This document shows positions 21,950-54,508 of a stretch of 64,000 bases of DNA, piece after piece. The DNA lies in the NCBI RefSeq assembly GCF_044647545.1, contig NZ_CP172818.1; one strand, written 5' to 3'. Position numbers and translations under genes: made by a program. The stretch comes from Escherichia coli (GTDB lineage: Bacteria > Pseudomonadota > Gammaproteobacteria > Enterobacterales > Enterobacteriaceae). The first letter of the stretch is position 1; every line of letters starts with the position of its first letter. Below the pieces are notes generated by a model. That model did no database searches, had not been told where the DNA came from, and worked only from the letters and a program-made list of their open reading frames with translations.

Positions 21950-22850
21950 CCGATCAGTTAAGAGGAGCGGCACTATGTTTCACAGGATAACGGGTTTTTG
22001 ATATCTTTAACCGACCTCGGCCTTGATGGTCGGGGGCGTTTTGTTATGAACACCACTTCCAGAGCACCCCGAAGATGCTCCAGTCGTTTCGGGATAGTCC
22101 CTGGTAACACCCTTTACCCAGCTCTATCATTTCTGATGCGATATTCTTCCACGCAGGCAGTAGCCAGTGGCGGTTACAACCCTTCTGGTTCAGCGTCAGC
22201 AGCAGGTCTTCGCTGTAAAAAGTTTATCAAACAACGTAATAGAGTTATCCGGGATGGTGGCGAGCATGGAGTGGGCCAGCACAGTTTCGCTCTGCCGGTA
22301 AGGTGCGGTCACGGCATTCAGCAGAATGTGACTTCCCAGGTTCATTAAGGCCACCAGACGCATAACCGGGTAGGCGTTCTGCCGCTTAGTGGATGTGTTG
22401 GCAGACCCATAATATTCACGCAGCTCGGGTTTATCAGGTGTCCTGAACTGTGCGCCATCAATGGCAAAAAGTTGCAGGCCGTGCCAGTCATCCTTCAGGT
22501 AACGTTCCGCGCCCCTGTCTGTGCGGTCTGGCGGAAGAGCCATTCCACTGGGGCGGCCCCCACGCGCTGACGCGCCTGGGTGACAGCGCTGCGGGCCAGC
22601 AGGTTCATCCCCGCTTCGCCATCCGCGCTCAGGTTCAGACGGCGAACAACATCGGTAATTGGCTCATTGCACCACCATCCAGATAACCATGTCCCCCGGT
22701 AAACGACGGCGGCGAACGGTCGCATGAGCAGAAAGCGTCAGGCAGTGTTGTATCCACTCGGTGGGAAGGTGTTCTGCAAATAGTTGTGCAGAGGGCGGAG
22801 GCATAAGCGGATGGTCACTGAAATCGAGCAGATCATTGAGAAGTGGCATA
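21950..22850 (-). pseudogene. insZ: IS4-family transposase remnant (N-terminal part only, multiple frameshifts)
   Basis: Three out-of-frame minus ORFs (22664-22849, 22495-22725, 22196-22543) together resemble the N-terminal half of IS4-type DDE transposases (e.g. ...TVRRRRLPGDMVIWMVV..., ...FAIDGAQFRTPDKPE...); no intact reading frame or terminal inverted repeats seen. Boundaries are approximate. Confidence 0.6.
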
Positions 22851-22973
22851 AGAAAACGGCTCCCTGTTGTGGAAGCCGTTATAGTGCCTCAGTTTAAGGA
22901 TCGGTCAACTAATCCTTAACTGACTGGCATTACCCCAGAAGGGACCGTTTATGTTGCCAGACAGCGCTACTGA

Positions 22974-26812: not shown

Positions 26813-27506
26813 TTCGTCATTATTTTTACTTTGTTCCCGCGCAGTTATCAAAAGCAAAAGGAATAGGTAAAAATATTCTTCTCAAATTACAGTTAGTTAT
26901 AAGGATTTCCCTAACTGCTTCTCCTCACCATCATGTTATTTTCGCCACATCATAATCCTGGGCTTGCTGAAGAATAATTGAAATGATATTAGTAATTCCA
27001 CTACCTTTGGTAGAGGAACTAAATAATAATCAATTGTTAAATTATTGTGCATTTCACTACTGGAACTGTAATCAGAAAAGAGAGACATGCTTAACCAACC
27101 TCTATTTGATTGAATTGAAAGATGTTTGTTAAGGCATGGATGCAAGCTATAGATTCTGATACGGTCAATAAAAGAGAATTGCTTAACAATTTTGCAAAAT
27201 GTATTGGCGAGTAAGAACCGCATTTGGTACTTTCCGGGCAACCGCCAGGCGATTCTTTATTGGTAATGAGAATAATTAACAATTAAAGATCGTCGCGAAA
27301 GAATAATGTGTCTCGACAGGGGAGACACAGTACGAATCGACATAAGGTGATCGTCTGAATCACCAGAATAAATAAAGTCGGTGATAGTAATACGTAACGA
27401 TAAAGTAACCTGACAGCAGAAAGTCTCCGAGCCTGTGCAGGGTCCCAATCCGGGATTACACATGCTGGTTAATACCAGTAATTATAATGAGGGAGTCCAA
27501 AAAACA

Positions 27507-39986: not shown

Positions 39987-40342
39987 GCACTCTCCTTGAG
40001 TTTTATGCAGGTGTTAATTAGCGGGCAATTGTACCCTGGTTAAGCCTCGGGTGGCAGCATCAGGTCTTGTATGGAAAAGCATATCTTTGTAAAGCGGAGG
40101 TAATTGCTGGCCTTCAGACGTGGGCAAATCGCGGCAAGTGGCGATCGAGTTAATATTTGCGTAGCGAAAATATTTAAAAATTGATTTGAATCACATTAAC
40201 CAGGATTCTTAATGCAACTTCTAAATTAATCCAGATCAATAAATGGTGAATTATCATATGTAATGTGATCTATGTAGGATCATTTGTTACTCCAATGTAG
40301 GTATATTCGTCACGTTTTTATAACCATAACGACGGAGCGGAT

Positions 40343-40981
40343 ATGAAAAAGTTAACAGTGGCGGCTTTGGCAGTAACAACTCTTCTCTCTGGCAGTGCCT
40401 TTGCGCATGAAGCAGGCGAATTTTTTATGCGTGCAGGTTCTGCAACCGTACGTCCAACAGAAGGTGCTGGTGGTACGTTAGGAAGTCTGGGTGGATTCAG
40501 CGTGACCAATAACACGCAACTGGGCCTGACGTTTACTTATATGGCGACCGATAACATTGGTGTGGAATTGCTGGCAGCGACGCCGTTCCGCCATAAAATC
40601 GGCACCCGGGCGACCGGCGATATTGCAACCGTTCATCATCTGCCGCCAACACTGATGGCGCAGTGGTATTTTGGTGATGCCAGCAGCAAATTCCGTCCTT
40701 ACGTTGGGGCAGGTATTAACTACACCACCTTCTTTGATAATGGATTTAACGATCATGGCAAAGAGGCGGGGCTTTCCGATCTCAGTCTGAAAGATTCCTG
40801 GGGAGCTGCCGGGCAGGTGGGGGTTGATTATCTGATTAACCGTGACTGGTTGGTTAACATGTCAGTGTGGTACATGGATATCGATACCACCGCCAATTAT
40901 AAACTGGGCGGTGCACAGCAACACGATAGCGTACGCCTCGATCCGTGGGTGTTTATGTTCTCAGCAGGATATCGTTTTTAA
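40343..40981 (+). CDS. ompW: Outer-membrane protein OmpW (212 aa)
   Basis: 212-aa ORF MKKLTVAALAVTTLLSGSAFAHEAGEFFMRAGSATVRPTEG... with signal peptide and C-terminal aromatic residue. Confidence 0.95.
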   Translation: MKKLTVAALAVTTLLSGSAFAHEAGEFFMRAGSATVRPTEGAGGTLGSLGGFSVTNNTQLGLTFTYMATDNIGVELLAATPFRHKIGTRATGDIATVHHLPPTLMAQWYFGDASSKFRPYVGAGINYTTFFDNGFNDHGKEAGLSDLSLKDSWGAAGQVGVDYLINRDWLVNMSVWYMDIDTTANYKLGGAQQHDSVRLDPWVFMFSAGYRF

Positions 40982-40995
40982 TTCCGCACAAAAAC

Positions 40996-41016
40996 GACCC
41001 CGTAATATACGGGGTC
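40996..41016 (-). terminator. Hairpin terminator downstream of yciE (end of the yciGFE operon), shared with ompW
   Basis: gaccccgtatattacggggtc (minus sense) followed by gtttttgtg; lies between the convergent ompW and yciE stops. Confidence 0.6.
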
Positions 41017-41040
41017 AATAAGGACATGGTATAAAGGGTA

Positions 41041-41547
41041 TTATTTCTTCGCTTCTACGCCATCAGTTTCAGAGCGAATTAAAAATTTCTCAGTTGTTTG
41101 CGGAATATGCTGAATCAGCCAGTCGGCCATTTGCTTTTCCTCATTTAAAATCGCTTCGATGGTTGGAATTGAAGCTGTATCACCGGCATTTTTTGCTGCT
41201 GCTAAGAGTGAGGTGTAACAGGCGATTTCAAATTGCTCGAAGACATATCCGCTAATAGAGCCTTTGACTATTTCATCAGAAGGGAATATACCACCGATTG
41301 ACTGCCCAAGCGCAGCCATTTTACTCATGGAATCTTTAATGACTGAACGTGAAATGTCATTACGATCAAGAATAGTTTCCAGTTGAACAATCGGTTTTTG
41401 GTTTCAATAAGATGTTGTTCAATACGAGCGCGTAGTTCAGGATAATTATCTATACGGCTGGCCATGGATTAAAGCATAGATTCGGCTTGCTTTTCCATTG
41501 CGTGGGCGTCACGTAACCAGTCATGATAATGTTCAATACGATTCATG
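41041..41547 (-). pseudogene. yciE: yciE (ferritin-like DUF892 stress protein) disrupted by a premature TAA and a 1-bp frameshift
   Basis: From the ATG at 41545-41547 the minus strand reads MNRIEHYHDWLRDAHAMEKQAESML then TAA (plus 41469-41471); the same frame continues SMASRIDNYPELRARIEQHLIETKN and then shifts by -1 near plus 41391-41394 into the 95-aa C-terminal ORF 41041-41328 (MSKMAALGQS...VEAKK). Repairing both changes gives exactly 168 aa, the expected YciE length. Confidence 0.8.
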
Positions 41548-41591: not shown

Positions 41592-42092
41592 TCAGGCTTT
41601 ATTTTCGGCTTTCTTATTTACGTTATTAAGGGCCAGATCAGTTAGTTTGATGTCGGTGGCCTTTTCTTCTTCAAGAGTTTCTTTCAGAAGCTTAGCTGCT
41701 TTACGGTAACCTAATTGTTCAGCCAGCGTCGCTAATGTCCCGTAACTGGCAATCTCATAATGCTCGACTTTCTGTGCTGCGGCAATCAGTGCGGCATCAC
41801 GCACTTCGTTTTTCTCGGTACTTTCGATGACCTCATTAGCTTCTTCAATAAGACCTTCCATTGCCACACATTTCATGCGCTTAATTTTCAGATTCGATTC
41901 TGATTCCACAACTTGATCAATACGTTCAATCTGTCCATGTGTTTCCTCGAGGTGCGCATGAAAAGCCTGACTTAATTTTTCGTTTGATGTTGCTCTAGCG
42001 AGTTTTGCCAGTGCACGTGTTAATTGTTTTTCTGCACTGTAGGTGTCTGAAAGCAGGTGAATAAATACATCTTCAATGGTCTTCATATTCAT
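41592..42092 (-). CDS. yciF: Ferritin-like stress protein YciF (166 aa)
   Basis: ORF 41592-42140; product MNMKTIEDVFIHLLSDTYSAEKQLTRALAKLARATSNEK... from the ATG at 42092; paralog of YciE. Confidence 0.9.
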   Translation of the reverse strand: MNMKTIEDVFIHLLSDTYSAEKQLTRALAKLARATSNEKLSQAFHAHLEETHGQIERIDQVVESESNLKIKRMKCVAMEGLIEEANEVIESTEKNEVRDAALIAAAQKVEHYEIASYGTLATLAEQLGYRKAAKLLKETLEEEKATDIKLTDLALNNVNKKAENKA

Positions 42093-42178
42093 ATTTTTCT
42101 CCAGTGAAATCACTGCGAGCCATACGGCCCGCAGATGCAATTATCTTTATCAGCTGATATTAATAATGAACGGTGAAT

Positions 42179-42358
42179 CAGGATTTTCCTGATTTATTAC
42201 CACCGCTTTGTTGACCGCCTTTTTTACCCGCTTCAGATGCGCGTTGCGGATCATTTTTAAAATTACCGCCGCTATGCTGACCGCCTTTACGGCCTGCGTC
42301 GGATGCCTTCTCACGGTCTTCGGCGAAATTTCCTGAACCACCACGATGTTCGGCCATG
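42179..42358 (-). CDS. yciG: KGG-repeat stress protein YciG (59 aa)
   Basis: Manual translation from the ATG at plus 42356-42358: MAEHRGGSGNFAEDREKASDAGRKGGQHSGGNFKNDPQRASEAGKKGGQQSGGNKSGKS. The supplied ORF 42150-42344 is in a different frame. Confidence 0.85.
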
Positions 42359-53177: not shown

Positions 53178-54053
53178 ATGAGCGAAAAGCTACAGAAAGT
53201 GCTGGCGCGTGCCGGCCACGGCTCTCGCCGTGAAATCGAATCTATTATTGAAGCCGGTCGTGTGAGTGTTGATGGCAAAATTGCTAAACTCGGCGATCGC
53301 GTTGAAGTTACCCCTGGATTGAAAATCCGTATCGATGGTCACCTGATTTCGGTACGTGAGTCCGCTGAACAAATTTGTCGCGTTCTGGCCTATTACAAAC
53401 CGGAAGGTGAGTTGTGTACCCGTAACGATCCGGAAGGACGTCCAACGGTGTTTGACCGTCTGCCAAAACTGCGTGGCGCACGCTGGATTGCCGTGGGTCG
53501 CCTGGACGTTAACACCTGTGGTCTGCTGCTGTTCACCACCGATGGTGAACTGGCAAACCGTTTAATGCACCCAAGCCGTGAAGTTGAACGTGAATATGCC
53601 GTGCGTGTATTTGGTCAGGTTGACGACGCGAAACTGCGTGATTTGAGTCGTGGCGTGCAGTTGGAAGATGGTCCGGCAGCCTTTAAAACCATCAAGTTCA
53701 GCGGCGGCGAAGGGATCAACCAGTGGTACAACGTTACTCTGACCGAAGGCCGTAACCGTGAAGTTCGTCGTCTTTGGGAAGCGGTTGGTGTGCAGGTGAG
53801 CCGCCTGATCCGTGTTCGTTACGGTGATATCCCACTGCCAAAAGGTCTGCCACGCGGTGGCTGGACGGAGCTGGACCTCGCCCAGACTAACTATCTGCGC
53901 GAACTGGTGGAGCTACCGCCAGAAACCAGCTCTAAAGTCGCTGTAGAAAAAGACCGTCGTCGCATGAAGGCGAATCAGATTCGTCGTGCGGTGAAACGTC
54001 ACAGTCAGGTGAGCGGCGGTCGTCGTTCTGGCGGACGTAATAATAACGGTTAA
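53178..54053 (+). CDS. rluB: 23S rRNA pseudouridine(2605) synthase RluB (291 aa)
   Basis: 291-aa [45 protein letters not shown]... (S4 domain plus RsuA-type catalytic domain, Arg-rich tail). Confidence 0.95.
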
Positions 54054-54466
<413 letters not shown>

Positions 54467-54508
54467 TGCGGATAATGACATGGAATATCCGGCATTATAT
54501 TTACAGCA

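Follow-up and report, generated by a model that had tools for sequence, protein, structure and literature searches.

The yciE product is a ferritin-like four-helix-bundle protein of the DUF892 family, and its gene ends the stress-induced yciGFE operon of Escherichia coli. The locus is said, in the title of a 2010 study by Beraud et al., to be sigma-S-dependent and regulated by YncC and H-NS. The review PMC7705038, which cites this study, presents yciGFE as a stress operon under activation by McbR and treats yciF and yciE as paralogues.

K-12 yciE provides the intact counterpart of the locus considered here. The window, a 64,000-nucleotide stretch of the E. coli contig NZ_CP172818.1, carries yciE at the same site as K-12, between yciF and the convergent ompW and downstream of trpA. 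Unlike that of K-12, the yciE reading frame of the window is destroyed, by a nonsense mutation (codon 26) and the loss of 1 nt (codon 52), and would no longer allow YciE to be made. Two further counterparts are already annotated as yciE pseudogenes. EGY17_RS20125 of FDAARGOS_497 is 100% identical to the window over the locus, and ECSMS35_RS09500 of SMS-3-5 has a stop and a deletion identical to those of the window. Alleles of the SMS-3-5 type differ from the window's allele in that Ser47 is kept and the changes G85S and F88F are present; therefore, they decayed separately after the shared lesions had arisen.

Other losses of yciGFE are found within the species. No yciE match was obtained in 697 of 5,426 complete E. 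coli genomes (about 13%), and in both of the yciE-less genomes that were checked, trpA adjoins ompW and the whole of yciGFE is absent; thus, the locus is dispensable in E. coli. In CFT073, yciG is missing and yciF is shortened. Within E. coli, this stress locus has been lost or trimmed by more than one route. Such cases share with the window the same outcome for YciE, or concern the same dispensable locus. They are, however, whole-gene deletions, whereas the yciE of the window remains in place with point lesions, and its yciG and yciF are intact.

The loss of yciE described here is that of an ordinary, already annotated, lineage-specific pseudogene. Very probably, it has been inherited vertically, having first lost its function and then decayed neutrally.

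The yciE pseudogene and its neighbours

In the window, trpA, yciG, yciF, and yciE follow one another on the minus strand and are succeeded by the convergent ompW. The transcription unit begins with yciG (42178–42357, minus strand; 59 aa) and continues with the yciE paralogue yciF (41592–42092, minus strand; 166 aa). Both are full-length, in agreement with the earlier note, which had described them as intact. The final gene of the unit is yciE, which in the alignment with K-12 occupies 41041–41546 on the minus strand and measures 506 nt, against 507 nt for an intact copy. A terminator-like hairpin followed by a T run (40995–41017, minus strand) lies 24 nt past the yciE stop codon, between the convergent yciE and ompW genes. 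Because this terminator follows yciE and ompW is convergent, no downstream gene is hit by the yciE lesions. The position of yciE as the last gene before the terminator also suggests that expression of yciG and yciF would be unaffected.

The alignment of yciE with K-12 (570 nt, short flanks included) contains six differing columns, five of which fall within the coding sequence. Two of the five are disabling, and these are the two inactivating lesions that the earlier note had claimed; the rest are S47I (AGT to ATT), a synonymous change at L114 (CTA to CTC), and N147H. The nonsense mutation occupies codon 26 (41469–41471, minus strand), where GAA has become TAA through a G-to-T change at window position 41471, exactly as had been proposed from the window's sequence. 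The second disabling difference is the loss of the A of CAG codon 52, between window positions 41393 and 41392 (41392–41393, minus strand). A 1-nt deletion had been predicted near 41391–41394, which is where it lies, and was assigned to codon 53 or thereabouts; the codon number needs a trivial adjustment to 52. The deleted A sits between CC and G, outside any run of A's, and an A5 run adjoins it. At codon 47 (41406–41408, minus strand), ATT (Ile) stands in place of AGT (Ser) through another G-to-T change, which is specific to the window's ST648-type haplotype.

The frame-1 translation of 41546–41041 reads MNRIEHYHDWLRDAHAMEKQAESML*SMASRIDNYPELRARIEQHLIETKN and is out of frame thereafter. In other words, the frame stops after 25 residues, YciE sequence resumes as far as N51, and the remainder lies in another frame. 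At most, the allele of the window would yield a 25-residue peptide, and YciE function is presumably lost. A C-terminal ORF of 95 aa, likewise reported in the earlier note, is present at 41041–41328; it starts with ATG and leaves the last two helices in their native sequence. With both lesions repaired, the gene encodes the 168 aa that had been expected, 166 of which are identical to K-12 YciE (S47I and N147H differ). Three mutations inside 79 nt of a 507-nt gene have a probability of about 0.065 under uniform placement, and their clustering is therefore unremarkable. Chance is hardly at issue for the lesions themselves, since they are discrete differences from an intact orthologue. Within the same species, intact yciE alleles are carried by K-12, CFSAN061770, TUM9803, and genomes of the 1517k type.

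The repaired protein places the gene within its family. It matches the PDB entry 3OGH ("Protein yciE") end to end, over residues 1–168, with an E-value of 2.5e-106, against 9.2e-05 for 4ERU, the structure of the paralogue YciF. This score, together with the gene order trpA-yciG-yciF-yciE-ompW as in K-12, establishes orthology to YciE rather than to YciF. The Pfam profile DUF892 (PF05974) is matched over the whole domain by the repaired translation only (E=2.3e-50; residues 5–156; model positions 4–158 of 159). In the actual sequence, the frame for the complete four-helix bundle is interrupted by the codon 26 stop and the codon 52 frameshift. Therefore, the locus is a pseudogene of the YciE/DUF892 family and not a functional member of it. 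A search of NCBIfam with repaired YciE, YciF, and YciG gave no match at E≤0.001. The product names used by PGAP, the annotation pipeline of NCBI, are "ferritin-like domain-containing protein" and "YciE/YciF ferroxidase family protein".

Genomes of the window type share an identical YciF protein (WP_001056491.1) with SMS-3-5 and with CFSAN061770, the last of which has an intact yciE, and YciG is represented by WP_000807651.1 in all examined genomes that possess yciG. Among the variable codons of yciF across the compared haplotypes, 17 are synonymous and 2 non-synonymous; yciF stays under purifying selection. Following the deletion, yciE has acquired the non-synonymous or nonsense changes E26*, S47I, G85S, and T129I and the synonymous changes F88F, A125A, and P128P. 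The resulting ratio of non-synonymous to synonymous changes is 4:3 for yciE and 2:17 for yciF, two figures that refer to different depths and to counts too small for significance. The direction of the post-lesion changes, small as their number is, fits relaxed constraint.

Distribution and order of the lesions

The survey covered 5,426 complete E. coli genomes at three sites of yciE: codon 26 (G or T), codon 47 (G or T), and codon 52 (A or deletion). Short queries were built such that any 28-mer seed was forced to span the lesion, and 90-mers were used for which a single difference lowers the identity below 99%. The deletion was found in 123 of the 5,426 genomes with a 30-mer and the stop in 116 with a 31-mer. 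Resolved by haplotype, the allele of the window (T-T-del) occurs in 84 genomes and the Ser47 allele (T-G-del) in 32, both as exact 90-mers; the latter group includes SMS-3-5, a phylogroup F strain. The frameshift alone (G-G-del) is present in 8 genomes, as an exact match over the full length. The three haplotypes sum to 124, compared with 123 by the 30-mer, a discrepancy of one genome. Since 84 and 32 make 116, all stop-bearing genomes also bear the deletion. A stop without the deletion on the Ile47 haplotype gave no exact match among the 5,426 complete genomes.

Dead yciE is thus common to about 2% of complete E. coli genomes, and the remaining genomes with the gene, roughly 4,600 in number, normally have an intact frame. 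Among the matches listed, at least 40 complete genomes agree with the window at every base of the 601-nt yciE region (100% identity). The exact allele is carried by 84 independent complete genomes, which come from many hosts as well as many laboratories and include a strain named ST648, MS6198, and IMT16316. The last of these strains belongs to ST648 (PMC6003029), a sequence type within phylogroup F (PMC12736214). Two suggestions made in the earlier note are set aside by these counts. A strain-specific pseudogene is incompatible with a deletion found in about 123 genomes, spread over three haplotypes, and with a stop found in 116; an introduced or erroneous sequence is incompatible with an identical allele in 84 independent genomes.

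The same state has already been recorded in public annotation. PGAP flags dead yciE as a pseudogene in 10 separately fetched records. The label is "frameshifted; internal stop" on the T-G-del and T-T-del genomes that were fetched and "frameshifted" only on G-G-del genomes, five of the eight having been checked individually. For example, NZ_CP033850.1 carries the same yciE allele as the window, annotated by PGAP as a pseudogene with the label "frameshifted; internal stop". In the 43 kb fetched from this record, just two pseudogene flags appear, on yciE and on a short ykgJ remnant. For the ST648-type lineage, dead yciE is the standard annotated state under PGAP, and the pseudogene is already known from RefSeq annotation in many genomes, including that of the reference strain SMS-3-5. 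A search of the literature on yciE pseudogenes and on yciE in ST648 turned up no paper that discusses it; the one nearby mention concerns yciE as a prophage insertion site.

The surviving haplotypes allow the events to be ordered. The existence of frameshift-only genomes shows that the two inactivating lesions arose as separate events, which bears out their description as independent. From the nesting of the haplotypes, in which 123 genomes with the deletion contain 116 with the stop and these contain 84 with Ile47, the order deletion, stop, S47I follows as the likely one, a stepwise decay of an already dead gene. In this sequence of events, the first lesion was the loss of the A of codon 52, on a yciE allele that has C at nt 341 as its marker, and it left a 73-aa product composed of 51 native residues and a 22-residue out-of-frame tail. 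The second lesion, the G-to-T change that created TAA at codon 26, arose in a subset of deletion carriers and cut the product to 25 residues. The third and latest change, the G-to-T substitution behind S47I, then occurred in the ST648-type subset, of which the window is a member. Purifying selection would have been lifted from yciE after the first lesion, with neutral decay ever since.

Other orders were considered and rejected. An origin of the stop before the deletion is contradicted by the lack of any stop-only (Ile47) exact match, by the finding of 116 of 116 stop carriers within deletion haplotypes, and by the frameshift-only genomes. Nor can Ile47 be ancestral in the lineage, as it is confined to the most derived haplotype and, independently, to TUM9803 with its K-12-like background. 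In TUM9803 (NZ_CP135671.1), yciE is intact and K-12-like in haplotype, and it carries the same AGT-to-ATT change (S47I); the codon 47 site has therefore mutated more than once.

With respect to the deletion, C at nt 341 is common to all three deletion haplotypes. The nearest intact allele (1517k, KOr019, AR13438, and HB42; protein WP_001079500.1), which has the same yciF 5' haplotype, carries A at this position, as does K-12. On account of the shared C and of the location of the deleted A outside a run of A's, a single origin of the deletion is favoured. At sites –247 and –147 within yciF (relative to the yciE start), the window-type, TCM3e1-type, 1517k-type, and K-12 haplotypes fail the four-gamete test. 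All four combinations are present; recombination has therefore taken place within the locus in the past, and its flanks are mosaic. For this reason, the nesting of haplotypes, not a genome-wide tree, is the basis for the order of events. The mosaic flanks also raised the idea that the deletion had recurred in the G-G-del group, which is less likely in view of the shared nt 341 C and a site that is not prone to slippage. The earlier note had further proposed a comparison across E. coli genomes for recurrent inactivation of yciE; a single origin of the lesion is seen in the survey, with no independent repeat hits within yciE.

Alternative explanations and implications

Several other readings of the interrupted frame deserve consideration. 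Sequencing or assembly errors, or a deliberate alteration confined to the window, could be suspected from the abnormal tract of about 400 nt and about 90% A found elsewhere in the window (54075–54470). Such an origin is exceedingly improbable for the yciE lesions: the 601-nt region recurs without a mismatch in at least 40 listed genomes, the 90-mer across both lesions is matched exactly in 84 genomes, and, two replaced segments aside, 1 SNP and one 4-bp indel are all that separates the window from NZ_CP033850.1 in 31 kb. It is also very unlikely that yciE still functions, either through readthrough of the stop combined with a –1 shift near CC-AAA-AAC-CG or through independent translation of the 95-aa ORF (41041–41328). 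A –1 shift directly past AAA-AAC would restore the frame, and the C-terminal ORF does begin with ATG and keep the last two helices in native sequence; yet the codon 26 TAA lies upstream of the shift site in no known readthrough context, and C-AAA-AAC, read from the sequence, is not a canonical X-XXY-YYZ slippery heptamer. In programmed recoding, the interrupted frame is the conserved state and a canonical slippery site is present; here the slippery site is not canonical, and the frame is normally intact, as the roughly 4,600 other yciE genomes demonstrate. As for the split gene, the internal ATG is preceded by no clear Shine-Dalgarno sequence, half a four-helix bundle would be unlikely to fold, and the sister haplotypes carry the downstream non-synonymous changes G85S and T129I, which also count against recoding. 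A reversible, phase-variable switch has solely the position of the deletion beside the A5 run to recommend it and deserves next to no credence. The deleted A lies between CC and G, outside any repeat tract, the deletion is linked to the haplotype marker nt 341 C, and additional lesions have piled onto it.

Neutral decay must further be weighed against adaptation, namely that inactivation of YciE benefited the ancestor of these phylogroup F lineages, such that the first lesion was selected and did not drift. In line with this idea, successful lineages (84 ST648-type and 32 SMS-3-5-type genomes) have the pseudogene fixed, further lineages of E. coli have also lost or trimmed yciGFE, and yciF is constrained while its paralogue yciE has been lost. 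However, nothing in these patterns separates selection from drift or hitch-hiking, a single origin of the lesion is seen, with no recurrent hits within yciE, and close relatives with an intact yciE persist too. Adaptive loss is therefore regarded as unlikely. Slightly more doubtful still is the specific proposition that selection drove the loss of YciE, with YciF kept, in the ancestor of the phylogroup F lineages of the ST648 and SMS-3-5 types. If it were true, the loss might, for example, have altered iron or oxidative-stress handling in stationary phase and thereby aided clones that are now pandemic, and the pseudogene, beyond neutral debris, would mark its lineage and have a phenotype as well. 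Relaxed selection on a pseudogene, which was among the possibilities named in the earlier note, offers the best explanation.

The yciE of the window is neither an error nor a new mechanism, and its importance is limited. It nevertheless provides a small and clean case of a pseudogene decaying step by step, with the intermediates (the frameshift by itself, the frameshift with the stop, and then an added missense change) still present in public genomes. The three-site yciE haplotype could serve to mark ST648-type and related phylogroup F E. coli. Furthermore, YciE is dispensable in natural E. coli, as is the entire yciGFE locus in other lineages, and YciF stays constrained, a contrast that modestly suggests some non-equivalence between the paralogues.

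Other features in and around the window

Over 31 kb, the window and NZ_CP033850.1 are distinguished by 1 SNP and one 4-bp indel, and otherwise only two replaced segments differ. The small differences are the indel at 27019, where CACT is missing in the window, and the SNP at 53713. The A-rich tract (54075–54470, plus strand) is situated between rluB and cobO; it comprises about 400 nt with about 90% A and is quite unlike E. coli DNA. The GC fraction of 54001–54400, in the region of this tract, is 0.138. The corresponding spot of NZ_CP033850.1 is occupied by about 1.5 kb in which two hypothetical genes lie, and the flanks adjoin each other in most E. coli. With a 1.4-kb query across the tract, none of the 5,426 complete genomes gave a coverage of 80% or more. 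The tract is probably an assembly artefact or replaced sequence.

Between adhE and tdk lies a 952-bp segment (21963–22914) with fragments resembling an IS4-family transposase. NZ_CP033850.1 has a complete IS4 element at this spot, with a transposase gene of 1,347 nt. The window differs from ST648-type genomes at the IS4 site, and K-12-like genomes align across 21963–22914.

Closer to yciE, ompW is intact in the window (40343–40981). In ECCNB12-2, S13, 500010, and N4220121, it is truncated by an inserted prophage, and carriers of the yciE pseudogene are among these genomes. Between ompW and yciC, a short remnant of a YkgJ-family cysteine-cluster gene is located at 40014–40103 on the minus strand. 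Wherever the region fetched from another annotated genome extended to this position, CFT073 and SMS-3-5 included, PGAP flags the remnant as an incomplete pseudogene; the K-12 record covers the position and carries no such feature. The ykgJ remnant appears to be old and widely shared.
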